Origin: a virus
Taxonomy: Duplodnaviria; Heunggongvirae; Uroviricota; Caudoviricetes
Virus record (IMG/VR): IMGVR_UViG_2695420565_000021
Coordinates: 1 to 7,128 of that record
Reading direction: 5' to 3' (one strand)
Length of the DNA stretch: 7,128 nucleotides
In this document: in pieces, positions 1 to 5,557 of the stretch
Layout: each line of letters begins with the position of its first letter
Numbering within the stretch: the stretch's first letter is position 1
Made by a program: the position numbers and the translations under genes
The notes under the pieces: model-generated
What the model was told of the DNA's origin: nothing
The model's input: only the letters and a program-made list of their open reading frames with translations
Database searches by the model: none

Positions 1-140
1 CTCTCGTCTGGGGAATATCTCCCCGGCAGCCTTCAGGGAAAAATATCATCAGATAGCTGCTTAAAAAAAGAACAAATGGTAGTGTCCGCTATTGTCAGTA
101 CACCTCAAATATCGCAAAACTCAAGCGATACGAGCTTGAT

Positions 141-305
141 ATGGATGGTTGTGACTCGTTCGGTCAGGATTGTGGCGCTGACATGACTGAAGATTCTGAT
201 GGCGATTATGTCCTGTTTGATGACGTGGTTAAGTTGTTTGAGTTTGATACAACCACTCAGAAGATAGAAAGCCCAGCAAAGGAGGCAACCAGTGAGCGAA
301 ATTAA
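141..305 (+). CDS. Doubtful small acidic protein (54 aa)
   Basis: ATG at 141 to TAA at 303-305, found by hand translation; below the length cutoff of the supplied ORF track. Product MDGCDSFGQDCGADMTEDSDGDYVLFDDVVKLFEFDTTTQKIESPAKEATSERN has about 15 Asp/Glu against 4 Lys/Arg. Only a weak SD (GAG about 6 nt upstream). Its 3' end overlaps the next gene start by 14 nt in another frame. Confidence 0.25.
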   Translation: MDGCDSFGQDCGADMTEDSDGDYVLFDDVVKLFEFDTTTQKIESPAKEATSERN

Positions 306-942
306 TTACCAGGCACTGCGTGAGGCGGCAGAGCGTGCAATTCCGGCAATGGAACGCCTGTTAATGTTGCCAGTTGATGATGATTTGTTAAGTGAACAGG
401 AACTTAAAGATTACGGTGTGGATATTGATGCGCTCAACGCCTTCAAATTTCTGGCCGGACCAGAAACCGTGCTGGCACTACTGGATGAATGGGAAAGAAA
501 CCAGCAATACATCAAACGCCGCGACCAGGAGAACGAGGATATTGCGCTTACGGTTGGGAAGCTGCGCGTTGAGCTGGAAGGCAAAGACAGCAAAATAGCC
601 AATCTTACCGCCGAACGCGATGCTCTTCGTGAAGGTGAGATGGGCGACGCTAGGCATAGCAACACACGGGCCGCAGCTGATATCTACTTCCAACTGGTCG
701 AGGAATGCGAAATTCCTGCTGGCGGATCTCTGGTCGAGTACGTTGACGATATGCGCGAGAAGCTGGAAGCCGCAGAGAAGCGGATTGCTGAACTGGAAGC
801 GCGGGAAATATCGCTCCCAGAACGTAGCAGCATGCTTCATCGAACAGATTTTCACGAGGATTACCAAACGGTAATGGCATACAAAGTTTCTGAAGTCATC
901 GATGCAATCCGCGCTACTGGCATTCGCATCAAAGGAGAGTGA
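292..942 (+). CDS. Ea22-like prophage early-region protein with coiled-coil segments (216 aa)
   Basis: GTG start at 292 preceded by GGAGG at 281-285 (6-nt spacer). The translation has heptad-like charged stretches (IKRRDQENEDIALTVGKLRVELEGKDSKIANLTAERDALREGE, MREKLEAAEKRIAELEAREI) and an N-terminus MSEINYQALREAAE and C-terminus GIRIKGE that I recall as characteristic of lambda Ea22 and relatives. This is a memory-based assignment, not a search result. Confidence 0.7.
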   Translation: MSEINYQALREAAERAIPAMERLLMLPVDDDLLSEQELKDYGVDIDALNAFKFLAGPETVLALLDEWERNQQYIKRRDQENEDIALTVGKLRVELEGKDSKIANLTAERDALREGEMGDARHSNTRAAADIYFQLVEECEIPAGGSLVEYVDDMREKLEAAEKRIAELEAREISLPERSSMLHRTDFHEDYQTVMAYKVSEVIDAIRATGIRIKGE

Positions 943-943
943 T

Positions 944-1801
944 ATGAGCACTATCACTAAAGAACGTATCGAATTGTTCATTAAATCCCCGCTTGAAAAC
1001 GGGCTTACTCGTGGCGAACAAATGGAACTGGCACGAATTGCGCTGGCATCGCTGGAAGCAGAGCCTGTGGCGTATATCATTCAGGACTCTGACGCTCGTA
1101 GTCGTGGAGAGAAAGGCATCCTTCGCTATTTCGCAAATATCAGCGACGAGGATATAAACGAGTACGAAATTACCGTAACTCCGCTTTACGCCGCCCCTCC
1201 AGAGACGGTATCTGTGCCTGATGCGATGGAAATGGATGATGACTTTGACAGCGCGTTTGAACACGGAAAAGCTGTCGGCTGGAACGCCTATCGCGCAGCC
1301 ATGCTTCAGTCCGGAAACTTTCGGGAAAACAAGAATTCGTCAACCAATAATTTTCGTGAAATCGCGGAAACGTCAACCAACTATCCGGTAATTCCTAGTG
1401 AGGTGTTGTCCGCAATCCAGAAGGTTGCCAAGATTCGTGCCGATTTCGATGATTTTGACGGTGACAGGCGAGGTATCTGTGATTGTCTGGATGAGGCTGA
1501 GCAAGAGCTTATCGTTACCATTAACAAATATGCCAGTCAGTTGGCAGCAGAACCTATCGCGCCTAATGACGTTCGAGAGCAGACAGCCATTCCGCAAGTT
1601 CCGGTAACTCCGGATGGTTGGATAAGCTGTAGTGAGCGAATGCCGAAAGGGTATGCTGATGTGTTAGTGACCGATGGCGAGCATGTCGAGGTTAAATGGT
1701 GGGATGAATCTGGGTATTGGAATAGTTGGACGGAACTTAACTCAGATATCTTTGCCGATGAAATAACTCACTGGATGCCGCTACCAGAGCCTCCACTTTG
1801 A
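944..1801 (+). CDS. DUF551 domain-containing prophage protein (285 aa)
   Basis: ATG at 944 with SD AAGGAGAG at 932-939, one nucleotide after the upstream TGA (940-942), which suggests translational coupling. The C-terminus (PDGWISCSERMPKGYADVLVTDGEHVEVKWWDESGYWNSWTELNSDIFADEITHWMPLPEPP) matches the DUF551 signature as I recall it. The ORF-track start at 902 is in the same frame but lies inside the upstream gene and has no SD. Confidence 0.8.
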   Translation: MSTITKERIELFIKSPLENGLTRGEQMELARIALASLEAEPVAYIIQDSDARSRGEKGILRYFANISDEDINEYEITVTPLYAAPPETVSVPDAMEMDDDFDSAFEHGKAVGWNAYRAAMLQSGNFRENKNSSTNNFREIAETSTNYPVIPSEVLSAIQKVAKIRADFDDFDGDRRGICDCLDEAEQELIVTINKYASQLAAEPIAPNDVREQTAIPQVPVTPDGWISCSERMPKGYADVLVTDGEHVEVKWWDESGYWNSWTELNSDIFADEITHWMPLPEPPL

Positions 1802-1897
1802 AAGCGAAGCTTATACATATCTTTTACATCAGCAATCTATTGTTAATCTCCAATCAATGTTACGTTGTCATCTCACTCATGCTTTGGAGGTAGTGAT

Positions 1898-2077
1898 ATG
1901 TCTTGTCCAAAATGCGGTTCTGGAAATATTGCAAAAGAAAAAACAATGCGTGGATGGTCTGATGATTATGTGTGCTGCGATTGCGGATACAACGACTCTA
2001 AAGACGCATTTGGAGAGCGTGGTAAAAACGATTTTGTCAAAATTAATAAAGAACGCGAAGGCAACGAAAAAAGCTAA
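1898..2077 (+). CDS. Small Cys4 zinc-ribbon protein (59 aa)
   Basis: ATG at 1898 preceded by GGAGG at 1886-1890 (7-nt spacer). Product MSCPKCGSGNIAKEKTMRGWSDDYVCCDCGYNDSKDAFGERGKNDFVKINKEREGNEKS has a CxxC...CCxC cysteine arrangement and a Lys/Glu-rich tail. The gene is AT-rich relative to its neighbours and is followed by an intrinsic terminator. The ORF-track start at 1865 is a TTG without SD. Confidence 0.6.
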   Translation: MSCPKCGSGNIAKEKTMRGWSDDYVCCDCGYNDSKDAFGERGKNDFVKINKEREGNEKS

Positions 2078-2140
2078 TTTATTTATTCATATATGAAAAC
2101 AATGTAACCAATATTCGAATTGAAGAACTGAAAGAACACC

Positions 2141-2164
2141 AAGCCGCCTGATGGCGGTTTTTTT
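2141..2164 (+). terminator. Rho-independent terminator downstream of the zinc-ribbon gene
   Basis: Stem AGCCGCC (2142-2148) / GGCGGTT (2153-2159) with loop TGAT, running into a run of 7 T (2158-2164); located 64 nt after the zinc-ribbon stop codon. Confidence 0.55.
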
Positions 2165-2178
2165 ATTGGAGACAAGAA

Positions 2179-2523
2179 ATGTCAGATTTGGCTATGAAGG
2201 TTTTGAAATGGCAATCGACTGGCGATGTCGGCATCAGTAGCGCAACTCTTGCCTCAATCGCATGTGGACTGAAAAAGAATATCTATGGTCATCACTTCGG
2301 CGCTCCACATGACGCAGCAGACTTCCGGCGATGCGTTGCACTTGTTGAGCAGATTCCAGAAATCAGAGATTCATTCGACAAGGTTGCAAAGCGCGTTCCG
2401 GCATTCAAAGGAATCCTCAACGAATGGGATTCACTCGTTGCTCTGTTGAAGTCTGAAATGAAGATACACGAAAACAAAGCACCAGAGACTTACAGAAGAA
2501 TTAGCGAGCTACGCAAGGACTAA
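2179..2523 (+). CDS. Hypothetical prophage accessory protein (114 aa), family not recognised
   Basis: ATG at 2179 with GGAG at 2168-2171 (7-nt spacer). Soluble-looking product with no obvious transmembrane segment (MSDLAMKVLKWQSTGDVGISSATLASIACGLKKNIYGHHFGAPHDAADFRRCVALVEQ...). Flanked by a terminator upstream and hairpin plus T-tract downstream. Confidence 0.6.
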   Translation: MSDLAMKVLKWQSTGDVGISSATLASIACGLKKNIYGHHFGAPHDAADFRRCVALVEQIPEIRDSFDKVAKRVPAFKGILNEWDSLVALLKSEMKIHENKAPETYRRISELRKD

Positions 2524-2524
2524 C

Positions 2525-2543
2525 GCCTCACACTCGATGAGGC
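2525..2543 (+). other. Perfect 6-bp stem-loop immediately after the 114-aa gene stop, without a U-tract
   Basis: GCCTCA (2525-2530), loop CACTCGA, TGAGGC (2538-2543). It starts 2 nt after the TAA at 2521-2523. Could be an RNA-stabilising or processing hairpin rather than a terminator. Confidence 0.3.
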
Positions 2544-2562
2544 CTGTACATATCTGATAGAT

Positions 2563-2585
2563 CCGCTATATGGCGGTTTCTTTTT
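2563..2585 (+). terminator. Weak candidate intrinsic terminator upstream of the AlpA-family gene
   Basis: Short GC stem CCGC (2563-2566) / GCGG (2573-2576) followed by TTTCTTTTT (2577-2585). The sequence resembles the terminator at 2141-2164 (CCGCCTGATGGCGGTTTTTTT versus CCGCTATATGGCGGTTTCTTTTT). Confidence 0.35.
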
Positions 2586-2600
2586 GCCTGGAGAATTAAG

Positions 2601-2792
2601 ATGACCGATACCAGCCTGATTCCTGAGAAAGAAGTGATGAACAAGCTCGGTGTTTCATCACGTCAGACAATCTGGAACTATACCAAACGGCACGGATTTC
2701 CGAAGCCAGTCAGAACCCACCCCAAATCATACCTTCGTGAAGCTGTTGAGGGGTGGATTCTTAACGGTGGCGTTAATCAGAAATGCTCCTGA
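2601..2792 (+). CDS. alpA: AlpA/Xis-family helix-turn-helix protein (prophage excisionase or integrase regulator), 63 aa
   Basis: ATG at 2601 with GGAG at 2590-2593 (7-nt spacer). Translation shows the AlpA-type HTH pattern (KLGVSSRQTIWNYTKRHGFPKPVRTHPKSYLREAVEGWI). Lies directly beside the integrase. An in-frame ATG at 2638 is an alternative start. The gene symbol reflects family membership only. Confidence 0.7.
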   Translation: MTDTSLIPEKEVMNKLGVSSRQTIWNYTKRHGFPKPVRTHPKSYLREAVEGWILNGGVNQKCS

Positions 2793-3951
2793 TGTGCCAG
2801 AACAATTTATCAGCGTGAAGCTCATACGCTTTGCGCTGAGCCTCTATCCAGTCGTGTTTATTGTATACGGACATTATCCCGCCAAGTTCATGACCGAGCA
2901 TTCGCTCAGTAACATGAGGCTCGACATTCATCTCGGACAGACGTGTAACAAGCGTTCTTCTGAAATCATGTGTTCGCCAGTAACCTAGATCCATCCCTCC
3001 CCTTATTCTATTTACGAATCGGTTGGCTGCAGCGATGCTGATCGGTTTGTTTATGTCTTCTCCAGGGAAAAGAACATCATTGTACGTTGTCATGGCCTTT
3101 TCGAGAAAAGGCTTAATTTGTTCGAATATTGGACGACGGATAACATTACCCATCTTGCTATGCTCTTTCGGTACGGTCCATACGTTGTCCAGCAGGTCAA
3201 ATTCTGTCTTTGTTGCCAGCCTAAGCTCTGAGAGCCTCGCCCCCCACAGCATAAGCATCTGATGAAGGAGCTTATTTGACGTAGACGCACGGCTTCTTTC
3301 AATAGCAAGCCAAATCTTAGCCAGTTCGTGATACGACAGTACCCGATCCCCTACCTCAGCGCGGGAGCCGAAGTCCCTTGGTTGGATGCTCATAATTGCG
3401 CAACTATCTATCAACTGACGCCGCATGCACCAACTTATTGCTGATCTTAGTTGACTTAGCACCTGCCTTGCTCGGCGTGGATTATCTCTTTCTTCTTCGG
3501 TAAGCAGGTCAACCCATTGCTTAACCGTGATAGAAGATGCCGGACGATTAGGAAAGGCGTCATGCATGCGCTTCATAACCGTTGATCGGTAAAGTGCCTG
3601 GGTCTTTTCTCTGAGAGTTGTAGAGACGTAGTTGTCGAACCAGTAGTCGAGACACTGGGCGACCGTCATGGAGTTCTCCACCTTCTCTTCAAAATAAGTG
3701 CGTGGATCCGTTCCTGAGAAATAGAGCTTTCGCAAGTCAGCAGTGATCTGTCTGGCATCCTTCAAAGACAGGGATGGGTATCGACCAAGCCCAAGTCGAT
3801 TAGGCTTGCCATGCCAGCGATAGCGGTACTGGAACTGGATGACCCCCTTCGGTGAAATTCGTACGCTGAGGCCATCGGCATCAGCCACTTCTTGTGGGCC
3901 CGAATATGGTTTACCATAAATAGTACGCAGTTTTGTGTCGCTTATAGCCAT
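2773..3951 (-). CDS. int: Tyrosine-type site-specific integrase of the P4/IntS type (392 aa)
   Basis: Full-length - strand ORF. N-terminal arm-binding-like region (LSVRISPKGVIQFQYRYRWHGKPNRLGLGRYPSLSLKDAR) and C-terminal catalytic signature (HDFRRT as the H-x-x-R box, and SVYNKH with the candidate catalytic Tyr). No SD before the ATG. Family named from memory of the fold signature. Confidence 0.9.
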   Translation of the reverse strand: MAISDTKLRTIYGKPYSGPQEVADADGLSVRISPKGVIQFQYRYRWHGKPNRLGLGRYPSLSLKDARQITADLRKLYFSGTDPRTYFEEKVENSMTVAQCLDYWFDNYVSTTLREKTQALYRSTVMKRMHDAFPNRPASSITVKQWVDLLTEEERDNPRRARQVLSQLRSAISWCMRRQLIDSCAIMSIQPRDFGSRAEVGDRVLSYHELAKIWLAIERSRASTSNKLLHQMLMLWGARLSELRLATKTEFDLLDNVWTVPKEHSKMGNVIRRPIFEQIKPFLEKAMTTYNDVLFPGEDINKPISIAAANRFVNRIRGGMDLGYWRTHDFRRTLVTRLSEMNVEPHVTERMLGHELGGIMSVYNKHDWIEAQRKAYELHADKLFWHIRSISD

Positions 3952-4132
3952 AAATAATATTTGGTACGCTCAGAAATAATAGTTTGGTACACACCTGGTA
4001 CACAATATCACATGGACAACAGCGCACAGTAAACAACTATATTTGACGTTCGTAGACATACTCAGGTGAAAAAATGGTTGTTTTTCGAGTTATAACAGAC
4101 AGTTAATTAACTACAGTGGACAATGCTAGACA
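3952..4132. promoter_or_regulatory. Integrase-sbcB intergenic region carrying candidate attachment-site arm repeats and the divergent int and sbcB promoters
   Basis: Direct repeats AAATAATA(G)TTTGGTAC (3952-3967 and 3974-3990), GGTACACA twice with about 10-bp phasing (3987-3994 and 3997-4004), GACAATG twice (4119-4125 and 4129-4135), and CACAG(A)TAAACAAC (4025-4037 here, 4141-4154 inside sbcB). Promoter-like hexamers exist on both strands (for example TATAAC at 4091-4096) but none with a convincing -35/-10 pair. Confidence 0.4.
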
Positions 4133-5557
4133 ATGACAGACACAGATAAACAACCTACCTTCCTCTTTCACGATTACGAAACCTTTGGCACGCACCCCGC
4201 GTTAGATCGCCCTGCACAGTTCGCAGCCATTCGCACCGATAGCGAATTCAATGTCATCGGCGAACCCGAAGTCTTTTACTGCAAGCCCGCTGATGACTAT
4301 TTACCCCAGCCAGGAGCCGTATTAATTACCGGTATTACCCCGCAGGAAGCACGGGCGAAAGGAGAAAACGAAGCCGCGTTTGCCGCCCGTATTCACTCGC
4401 TTTTTACCGTACCGAAGACCTGTATTCTGGGCTACAACAATGTGCGTTTCGACGACGAAGTCACACGCAACATTTTTTATCGTAATTTCTACGATCCTTA
4501 CGCCTGGAGCTGGCAGCATGATAACTCGCGCTGGGATTTACTGGATGTTATGCGTGCCTGTTATGCCCTGCGCCCGGAAGGAATAAACTGGCCTGAAAAT
4601 GATGACGGTCTACCGAGCTTTCGCCTTGAGCATTTAACCAAAGCGAATGGTATTGAACATAGCAACGCCCACGATGCGATGGCTGATGTGTACGCCACTA
4701 TTGCGATGGCAAAGCTGGTAAAAACGCGTCAGCCACGCCTGTTTGATTATCTCTTTACCCATCGTAATAAACACAAACTGATGGCGTTGATTGATGTTCC
4801 GCAGATGAAACCCCTGGTGCACGTTTCCGGAATGTTTGGAGCATGGCGCGGCAATACCAGCTGGGTGGCACCGCTGGCGTGGCATCCTGAAAATCGCAAT
4901 GCCGTAATTATGGTGGATTTGGCAGGAGACATTTCGCCATTACTGGAACTGGATAGCGACACATTGCGCGAGCGTTTATATACCGCAAAAACCGATCTTG
5001 GCGATAACGCCGCCGTTCCGGTTAAGCTGGTGCATATCAATAAATGTCCGGTGCTGGCCCAGGCGAATACGCTACGCCCGGAAGATGCCGACCGACTGGG
5101 AATTAATCGTCAGCATTGCCTCGATAACCTGAAAATTCTGCGTGAAAATCCGCAAGTGCGCGAAAAAGTGGTGGCGATATTCGCGGAAGCCGAACCGTTT
5201 ACGCCTTCAGATAACGTGGATGCACAGCTTTATAACGGCTTTTTCAGTGACGCAGATCGTGCAGCAATGAAAATTGTGCTGGAAACCGAGCCGCGTAATT
5301 TACCGGCACTGGATATCACTTTTGTTGATAAACGGATTGAAAAGCTGTTGTTCAATTATCGGGCACGCAACTTCCCGGGGACGCTGGATTATGCCGAGCA
5401 GCAACGCTGGCTGGAGCACCGTCGCCAGGTCTTCACGCCAGAGTTTTTGCAGGGTTATGCTGATGAATTGCAGATGCTGGTACAACAATATGCCGATGAC
5501 AAAGAGAAAGTGGCGCTGTTAAAAGCACTTTGGCAGTACGCGGAAGAGATTGTCTAA
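4133..5557 (+). CDS. sbcB: Exodeoxyribonuclease I (exonuclease I, 3'-5' ssDNA exonuclease), 474 aa
   Basis: Full-length ORF whose translation from residue 9 onward matches E. coli SbcB as I recall it (FLFHDYETFGTHPALDRPAQFAAIRTD... to ...ALWQYAEEIV). The first 9 residues (MTDTDKQPT) differ from the K-12 N-terminus I remember (MMNDGKQQST). No clear SD. Confidence 0.95.
   Translation: MTDTDKQPTFLFHDYETFGTHPALDRPAQFAAIRTDSEFNVIGEPEVFYCKPADDYLPQPGAVLITGITPQEARAKGENEAAFAARIHSLFTVPKTCILGYNNVRFDDEVTRNIFYRNFYDPYAWSWQHDNSRWDLLDVMRACYALRPEGINWPENDDGLPSFRLEHLTKANGIEHSNAHDAMADVYATIAMAKLVKTRQPRLFDYLFTHRNKHKLMALIDVPQMKPLVHVSGMFGAWRGNTSWVAPLAWHPENRNAVIMVDLAGDISPLLELDSDTLRERLYTAKTDLGDNAAVPVKLVHINKCPVLAQANTLRPEDADRLGINRQHCLDNLKILRENPQVREKVVAIFAEAEPFTPSDNVDAQLYNGFFSDADRAAMKIVLETEPRNLPALDITFVDKRIEKLLFNYRARNFPGTLDYAEQQRWLEHRRQVFTPEFLQGYADELQMLVQQYADDKEKVALLKALWQYAEEIV

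Follow-up and report, generated by a model that had tools for sequence, protein, structure and literature searches.

A stop/start junction between Ea22-like and DUF551 genes as a probable portable cassette joint in a P22/HK620-like prophage

Do two early genes of a prophage that meet at a tight stop/start junction encode partner proteins? The question is raised by a 7128-bp stretch of DNA (hereafter the window, locus L169), which is the entire contig CYCZ01000104.1 of the Escherichia coli draft genome GCA_001283765.1. At positions 292-1801 it carries an ead/Ea22-like gene followed by a gene whose product ends in a DUF551 domain. An earlier note on this DNA had taken their junction to imply coupled expression at a fixed stoichiometry and possibly a physical complex. 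Comparison with related loci gives a different answer. Positions 292-1801 hold a pair of unexceptional accessory genes, both annotated before, from the part of the early-left (PL) operon nearest to int in a P22/HK620-like prophage, and the junction, judged by sequence comparison, is probably a generic and portable cassette joint, unspecific to an Ea22-DUF551 partnership.

The junction and the block around it

The Ea22-like gene (216 amino acids, aa; + strand) runs from GTG292 to TGA940-942, and the gene behind it, of EaA type (285 aa; + strand; C-terminal DUF551), from ATG944 to TGA1799-1801. A single spacer base, T943, separates the stop codon from the start codon at 944-946, and both genes lie on the same strand. 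The Shine-Dalgarno (SD) sequence AAAGGAGAG at 931-939 is placed 4 nucleotides (nt) before ATG944 and within the last Ea22 codons, while its GGAG (934-937) stands 6 nt before the start. The earlier note had described this geometry, including an SD inside the upstream coding sequence, and its coordinates and frames hold. In its geometry, the arrangement resembles classical translational coupling, with TGA-N-ATG and a strong SD 4 nt before the start inside the upstream open reading frame (ORF). It differs from the classical case in that no significant structure occluding the SD or the AUG is predicted, as RNA folding across the junction does not surpass that of shuffled controls (z 0.28 and -0.24). 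A conserved coupling hairpin was dropped as a candidate, as the folding energy of the junction matches that of shuffled sequence. A perfect inverted repeat of 7 bp (AGTGATA/TATCACT, 938-958; stem about -6 kcal/mol) extends across the stop codon of Ea22 and the start codon of DUF551; since its 3' arm sits in the variable downstream gene, it is no property that the joint could have in general. A scan for promoters and terminators within 292-1801 gave nothing notable.

The +1-nt stop/start junction is real and strongly conserved, and it is unremarkable, being the default packing of the region. Among 294 further consecutive junctions in related loci, the gaps have a median of 1 nt, and 61% of them measure 10 nt or less. 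In the intact relatives L163 and L167, the genes follow one another as Ral ... Erf, SSB, Abc2, DUF2737, a 105-aa gene, Ea22, DUF551, Eag ... int, and the gaps at their junctions are 0, 13, 10, -4, -14, and +1 nt. Because this geometry is found at most junctions whatever the identity of the genes, it is uninformative on protein partnership. Genes in the early operons of lambdoid and P22-like phages are ordinarily packed with stop/start junctions that embed an SD, and such a junction is no evidence that their products are partners.

A more specific feature is the block of about 30 nt in which the junction is embedded. The joint, CTGGCATTCGCATCAAAGGAGAGTGA-T-ATG (917-946, + strand), comprises the last 8 codons of the Ea22-like gene (..GIRIKGE), the SD, the stop, the spacer, and the start. 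In 34 distinct contexts aligned at the stop codon, each position from about 917 to 946 agrees with the window at 97-100% identity, third codon positions included, whereas identity is about 50% in the upstream flank and about 30% in the downstream flank. Differing C-terminal domains all finish with ..(A/T)GIRIKGE*, and so do DUF7739 and Mom-like proteins and one protein with an EaA leader. In these alignments the final eight codons of Ea22-like genes, and now and then those of genes unrelated to them, are supplied by this block irrespective of the preceding C-terminal domain.

The generality of the joint was assessed in loci from IMG/VR. A first sample consisted of 80 loci anchored on Ea22-like homologues, and the next gene was counted in 77 of them. 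Here the junction TGGCATTCGCATCAAAGGAGAGTGA(T/G)ATG is almost invariant, the next genes span 18 unrelated similarity groups, and 73 of the 77 gaps fall in the range from -14 to +4 nt. Of these loci, 21 (27%) have an EaA-type gene immediately behind Ea22, with a DUF551 motif in 17 of the 21; among the other next genes are 58-aa, 63-aa (hkaF-like), 69-aa, 87-aa, 171-aa, and 251-aa genes as well as ClpX-zinc-finger and Mom-like genes. A further sample was obtained by scanning IMG/VR for the 22-mer CATTCGCATCAAAGGAGAGTGA, which yielded at least 122 occurrences in 120 stretches among the matches listed. All 102 complete downstream ORFs among these listed matches start after exactly 1 spacer base; they belong to 14 unrelated families, and 17 are of EaA type, 10 of these with a DUF551 motif. 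Among the listed matches, an Ea22-related gene lies upstream in 112 of 117. The inference of a coupled pair at fixed stoichiometry, drawn in the earlier note from the junction, does not survive this comparison, in which the same joint connects Ea22-like genes to 14-18 unrelated families. Since it precedes at least 14 unrelated genes in other phages, a dedicated two-protein complex is not indicated.

The joint is also found in duplicate. In L110 (3215 and 3709), L066 (4710 and 5204), L153 (2399 and 3242), L155 (3102 and 3596), and others, it recurs on the same strand as exact direct repeats of 17-26 nt, 494 or 843 bp apart, which bracket cassettes; no similarity was found outside these repeats. 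Because exact repeats flank the cassettes without similarity beyond them, cassettes may be gained and lost by homologous recombination (HR) at the joint. The joint would supply the next gene with a ready ribosome-binding site and a context for termination and reinitiation. It would also present about 22-30 nt of perfectly matching sequence to phage DNA that enters, at which the Erf-, RecT-, or Sak4-type annealing recombinase of the operon could swap, insert, or delete cassettes.

Such a process has a known counterpart. Rad52-like recombinases have been reported to make lambdoid mosaics on short, diverged homology, where Red-beta needs a minimum of about 30 bp and the mosaics have a median length of 404-494 bp (PMC3945230). 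Like the mosaic boundaries described in that work, the joint is a short conserved sequence that lies exactly at a gene boundary and parts unrelated segments. Its cassettes of about 0.2-0.8 kb fit the reported median, and its homology of 22-30 nt is near the Red-beta minimum. Annealing recombinases of Erf/Rad52, RecT, or Sak4 type are moreover encoded upstream in the same operon. The difference from the lambdoid "HR traces" (PMC3945230) is that the joint is one defined, reused sequence embedding stop, SD, and start and is therefore more stereotyped. A description of the Ea22-terminal joint was not found in the literature searched. The HK620 and HK97 papers are said to discuss conserved gene-boundary sequences.

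The genes and their geometry are already annotated publicly, and neither the genes of the locus nor its type of mosaic architecture is new. What it may illustrate is how the "ea" region is built, namely from ordered optional cassettes and a reusable junction that carries both a ribosome-binding site and homology for exchange.

Neighbours, alleles, and fusions

The view from the downstream gene was taken in about 80 IMG/VR loci anchored on the DUF551-type protein, with the upstream neighbour counted in 75. The most frequent upstream neighbours are an 87-aa gene (22 loci), a 171-aa gene (15), a 69-aa gene (12), and a 63-aa gene (9), and an Ea22-type gene stands directly upstream in only about 7-8 of the 75, or roughly 1 in 10. 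The conserved adjacency expected of an obligate pair is thus not found from either side, each gene having its alternative neighbours (14-18 families behind Ea22). Co-occurrence, which the earlier note had proposed as a check, holds at the regional scale: a relative of the EaA protein lies within 3 kb downstream in 59 of 62 Ea22-anchored loci, and the reverse applies in 42 of 68. It does not extend to direct adjacency, with 21 of 77 and about 7-8 of 75. The distance from Ea22 to EaA/DUF551 varies from 0 to 2.1 kb; eaD and eaA of P22 are about 1.1 kb apart, the pair of BP-4795 about 0.9 kb, and in HK620 hkaF lies between hkaG and hkaE. In the loci compared, the order is Ea22, 0-5 optional cassettes, EaA/DUF551, further optional cassettes, Eag and others, a xis-like gene, and int. 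Co-occurrence of this kind would be expected from a gene order conserved among closely related prophages, and on this comparison it points to optional slots and no fixed pair.

The alleles themselves are reassorted. A 100%-identical DUF551 protein lies behind Ea22 variants of 216, 193, 210, and 218 aa and behind a 174-aa DUF7739 protein. The four Ea22 variants have a common C-terminal module and differ in their N-terminal and middle modules. Prophages with the identical DUF551 allele occupy two integration sites, next to sbcB and, judged by Pfam families, next to genes of proBA type. On the other side of the junction, a 98%-identical Ea22 (P0127) sits in a different type of prophage and is followed by a 63-aa gene; in five of its six places, the products within 2.5 kb contain no Pfam DUF551 match. 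Co-variation or co-transfer of alleles, as expected of an obligate pair, is therefore not observed, since identical DUF551 occurs with five partners and near-identical Ea22 occurs without DUF551 nearby. The main text of a co-transfer study of lambdoid phages mentions neither Ea22 nor DUF551 (PMC9836094).

Natural fusions form a further class of evidence. L148 (3461-4282) and L081 (3977-4771) have an Ea22 N-terminus and coiled coil fused in frame to DUF551, with the fusion point between ..AEKRIAELEA and (K/E)PVSQTYKL..; the one in L148 has the DUF551 core of the window. Other Ea22::DUF551 fusions are found in phiv205-1 and phiSTEC1575, and the Ea22_V2 variant of Shiga toxin (Stx) phages is a published fusion of this kind (PMC10834534). 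The annotation notes of HK620 tie hkaG and hkaE alike to L0140 of 933W. A reciprocal recombinant, with the leader of EaA and the tail of Ea22, occurs in L036 (4732-5043), and both types of fusion meet at a common ..LEA(E/A).. microhomology. In addition, DUF551 lies behind a DUF550 dATP/dGTP pyrophosphohydrolase module (L012; the module was identified in L027). The fusions make DUF551 look like a portable C-terminal domain and the two proteins look like interchangeable carriers, unlike subunits of one complex.

Several points weigh against the reading of the junction as a generic cassette joint. The loci come overwhelmingly from prophages of E. coli, Shigella, and Salmonella and lack phylogenetic independence, and the proximity of Ea22 and EaA relatives within 3 kb is high. 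The natural Ea22::DUF551 fusions may leave room for a looser functional relation of the two chassis. Recombination at the joint is deduced from patterns in the sequences, and conservation reaching 100% could reflect a constraint on a functional RNA or peptide. As regards the proteins, their presumed functions are drawn from homology and from published work on other variants, the structure models are of low confidence, and the Ea22-like C-terminal module has no match in the PDB, so that it is unlike the studied C-terminal domain of lambda.

The alternative that fares best, possible although hardly probable, is that Ea22-like and EaA-type proteins are alternative carriers of interchangeable C-terminal domains such as DUF551, related in function and acting independently, without a mutual complex. 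The reciprocal recombinants (Ea22::DUF551 in L148 and L081, EaA leader::Ea22 tail in L036) are consistent with it, and so are the similar LEAEP and LEAAE motifs in which the helical parts of the two chassis end and the fusion of DUF551 to DUF550 pyrophosphohydrolase modules and to helix-turn-helix proteins. Sequence homology between the two N-terminal regions is, however, not detectable, and the fusions could be tolerated accidents of recombination at microhomology.

A second alternative holds that the block of about 30 nt is kept mainly for a function of its own, either as an RNA element for downstream translation or messenger RNA processing or for the sake of the C-terminal peptide ..GIRIKGE. 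Its conservation, third codon positions included, goes beyond the needs of an SD, the inverted repeat brackets stop and start in the window, and the tail is kept on Ea22 proteins with different C-terminal domains. Against this, the junction folds no better than its shuffles, the 3' arm of the inverted repeat falls within the variable downstream gene, and a constraint on the peptide would allow synonymous changes, of which none is seen. The block also ends non-Ea22 proteins and forms direct repeats around cassettes. It is accordingly improbable that such a function is the main reason for its conservation, and the own-function and joint models are mutually compatible.

A stronger version of the cassette-joint reading would make the end of the Ea22 gene a dedicated cassette-acquisition joint that recruits genes through annealing by a recombinase and expresses them at once, the slot behind it a hotspot for counter-defence and host takeover, the EaA/DUF551 proteins modular early effectors with a target-binding DUF551 core under diversifying selection, and Ea22 an alternative oligomeric carrier of that domain, in line with the natural fusions. 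Taken as a whole, this seems unlikely. The genes behind the joint include a DpdA-like "queuine tRNA-ribosyltransferase" (phrog_887, E-value 3e-101; 9 of 102 among the matches listed; for example L003 4647-5399), a Mom-like DNA-modification gene (phrog_1384, E-value 4e-42; L066 4729-5217), a DUF550 fusion (L027 4624-5241), and a ClpX-zinc-finger gene (L004 4689-5009). On this circumstantial evidence, the slot behind Ea22 may be one for accessory and partly anti-restriction cargo. PADLOC assigned 0 families to the Ea22-like protein, the EaA protein, or six neighbouring and cargo proteins, and a literature search joining the exo-xis region with anti-defence found nothing. If the joint does drive the capture of cassettes, the slot would be worth searching for counter-defence genes of phages, and the widespread DUF551 would be a candidate variable binding module.

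That Ea22-like and EaA/DUF551 proteins are a dedicated pair, held at a fixed ratio by translational coupling and joined in a heteromeric complex, is very unlikely: the real junction with its embedded SD and 1-nt spacer, the high synteny within 3 kb, the Rosetta-stone-type evidence of the natural fusions (PMC10834534), and the presence of an Ea22-family gene with the same C-terminal module before the exact DUF551 allele in 8 of 9 visible places speak for it, whereas that linkage is expected from recent common descent of one haplotype block, the identical junction precedes 14-18 unrelated families, direct adjacency amounts to 27% (Ea22 to EaA-type) and about 10% (DUF551-type from Ea22), 0-5 genes intervene (HK620, P22, BP-4795), the alleles reassort, and DUF551 exists in virulent Kagunavirus/Jersey-like phages and in phages of varied hosts (BFVD). 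To adopt it would steer effort to a heterocomplex of Ea22 and DUF551 proteins, for which the comparative data give no support.

The two proteins

Both proteins belong to the families named in the earlier note, with Pfam matches above the gathering threshold and 100%-identical database proteins, and both families are common in early-left regions of lambdoid phages, as it had also said, and of P22-like phages; DUF551 has no assigned function. NCBIfam returned a family for neither protein.

The Ea22-like gene is preceded by the SD AAAGGAGG at 278-285, and its GTG start is backed by the database protein P0121, annotated as "ead/Ea22-like family protein" (216 aa, 100% identity). The product matches Ead_Ea22 (PF13935; E-value 3.9e-30; 105.7 bits, cut-off 27) over residues 2-169 and profile positions 1-139 of 139. 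The gene is a mosaic in which the N-terminus is variable to about nt 470, the core LLDEWERNQQYIKRRDQENEDIALTVGK is conserved, the middle is variable, and the C-terminal module extends over AEKRIAELEAREISLPER...AIRATGIRIKGE; 15 PHROGs match separate segments of the protein, and module swaps are seen in the alignment. Weak matches to coiled-coil families fall at residues 137-178.

The relatives of this protein are the Ea22 of lambda and Stx phages, EaD of P22, and HkaG of HK620, to which it is 71% identical over the full length. It shares with the Ea22 of lambda and Stx phages the early-left position between the recombination genes and int, and with the Ea22 variants V1-V3 the same segmental mosaicism (PMC10834534). 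Its N-terminus and core are homologous to lambda Ea22, which aligns at 56% identity and only over residues 1-102 (tblastn). The C-terminal module of the window protein (SLPERSSMLHRTDFHEDYQTVMAYKVSEVIDAIRATGIRIKGE) is by contrast unrelated to the lambda C-terminal domain with a published nuclear magnetic resonance structure; a phmmer search against PDB chains gave 0 hits at E<=1. The gene neighbours of lambda Ea22 are ea8.5 and orf61, and these differ from the neighbours in the window. Ea22 has been described as a tetrameric, prolysogenic protein in which an N-terminus is followed by a coiled coil and by a C-terminal domain that varies (PMC7093339, PMC10834534), and AlphaFold models of it have been reported as unreliable. 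By homology, the Ea22-like protein of the window is most likely an oligomeric coiled-coil early protein that would bias infection toward lysogeny; the prolysogenic phenotype itself was shown for the lambda and Stx-phage variants.

The ATG start of the EaA-type gene is backed by the database protein P0001, a "DUF551 domain-containing protein" (285 aa, 100% identity), and close homologues are named "Eaa protein". The leader (aa 1-41, nt 944-1066, + strand) ends with ..ARIALASLEAEP and is one of several alternative leaders among 52 aligned homologues. It is followed by a middle region of 180 aa on the + strand, nearly invariant among the aligned hits, which matches phrog_14306 at aa 109-225. The DUF551 domain occupies aa 225-284 (1616-1795, + strand), its match to PF04448 (E-value 5e-15; 56.6 bits, cut-off 22) covering profile positions 1-67 of 68. 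Separate segments of EaA match 10 PHROGs, and the alignments show this protein and the Ea22-like one to be mosaics of exchangeable segments.

Within DUF551, the edges PVTPDGWISCSERMP and THWMPLPEPP are nearly invariant and the core is hypervariable. Several unrelated-looking cores of differing lengths occur in proteins that are otherwise about 80-90% identical. This variation of the core could come from cassette exchange within the domain or from diversifying selection. AlphaFold2 modelling of full-length EaA on the 52-row alignment gave a mean predicted local distance difference test score (pLDDT) of 49, with 70-84 for the DUF551 part alone; modelling of the isolated domain was worse (pLDDT 56). 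Strands are predicted at 238-243, 248-253, and 276-279, so that a small all-beta domain is suggested. No solved relative was found: a sequence search of the PDB with the EaA protein gave no hit at E<=1, and the best Foldseek hit in the PDB had an unusable E-value of 1.7. Foldseek against BFVD gave only other DUF551 or unnamed viral proteins and no functional lead.

DUF551 is widespread. It occurs in 640 phage records, including virulent Kagunavirus/Jersey-like phages, and the DUF551 proteins in BFVD belong to phages, Ackermannviridae included, whose hosts extend from Klebsiella to Burkholderia. The domain of the window matches P22 eaA at 37% identity (E-value 3e-5, tblastn), and hkaE of HK620 has the same position in the operon. 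P22 EaA, HkaE (177 aa), and YfdS of the E. coli element CPS-53 differ from the window protein in having another combination of modules in place of its leader and 180-aa middle. Deletion of yfdS, which encodes a DUF551 protein, has been reported to cause sensitivity to H2O2, and YfdS contributes to the effects of multicopy yfdQRST on replication initiation (PMC4776307); these, the only phenotypes in the literature for a DUF551 protein, cannot be transferred to the EaA protein with any confidence. DUF551 is most likely, although with low confidence, a portable C-terminal beta domain that would serve as a binding module for a target in the host or in a competitor.

The operon around the two genes

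Upstream of the two genes, the operon is interrupted in this strain. Positions 1-104 (+ strand) are the 3' end of IS600, an insertion sequence of the IS3 family, and contain the last transposase codons (frame 2, ...LGNISPAAFREKYHQIAA, TAA 62-64) and the terminal repeat. By megablast, positions 1-125 match 3424 E. coli records at about 95% identity, annotated as "IS3-like element IS600 family transposase". In the alignment to L163 and L167, similarity to the intact prophage gene starts only at about 105. From there to 305 (+ strand) extends the C-terminal remnant of an early-left gene that matches only positions 52-105 of the phrog_3126 profile; the gene is intact at 105 aa in L163 and L167, and IS600 has cut the copy of the window in half. 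The stop of the remnant (TAA 303-305) overlaps the Ea22-like start by 14 nt. IS600 is oriented as the operon and lies 188 nt 5' of the Ea22-like start, and it probably uncouples the Ea22/DUF551 pair and the other distal early-left genes from PL in this strain. Because of this insertion in the 105-aa gene, expression of the pair from PL is doubtful in this lysogen, whatever the coupling geometry, and the prophage may be defective.

The best phage match by megablast is HK620, with the order hkaG (Ea22-like), hkaF, hkaE (DUF551), and hkaD (Eag). No phage record covers 80% or more of a query of positions 1-2100, and none of 5,426 E. coli genomes covers as much of positions 1-4100. As the megablast alignments break at 466-473, 759-778, about 942, 1277-1313, and 1607-1651, that is, inside genes as well as between them, the region is a fine-grained mosaic.

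The next gene of the operon, 96 nt past the DUF551 stop, is an Eag-like zinc-ribbon gene of 59 aa (1898-2077, + strand; phrog_2945, E-value 5e-31), whose homologue is annotated as "Eag protein" in HK620 and in E. coli genomes. Its product has sub-threshold likeness to Lar_restr_allev (PF14354, E-value 1e-4) and to zinc-ribbon proteins of the HVO_2753 type. A 114-aa gene (phrog_1229) follows at 2179-2523 on the + strand. GC-rich, terminator-like hairpins with T-runs are present at 2141-2160, past the Eag-like gene and before the 114-aa gene, and at 2563-2576, past the latter; the genes after the DUF551 gene are spaced by 77-101 nt. The tight packing can be said to end at the DUF551 gene because these hairpins and wider spacing follow it.

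The right end of the prophage is formed by an AlpA/Xis-like helix-turn-helix gene (2601-2792, + strand) and a tyrosine integrase gene (2773-3951, - strand). The former matches phrog_66 (excisionase/regulator, E-value 1.9e-8) and weakly Pfam Phage_AlpA, and its product is named "AlpA family transcriptional regulator" in RefSeq; the latter has the Pfam domains Arm-DNA-bind_3 and Phage_integrase. The two genes are convergent, with 3' ends that overlap by 20 nt. The int gene marks the end of the prophage beside chromosomal sbcB (4133-5557), which is followed by yeeD/tsuB and yeeE/tsuA, and a matching context is found in L002, L163, L167, and an E. coli chromosome. At the proBA-type site, the loci with the identical DUF551 allele (L162, L164-L166, and L168) have a different, co-directional integrase of 386 aa.

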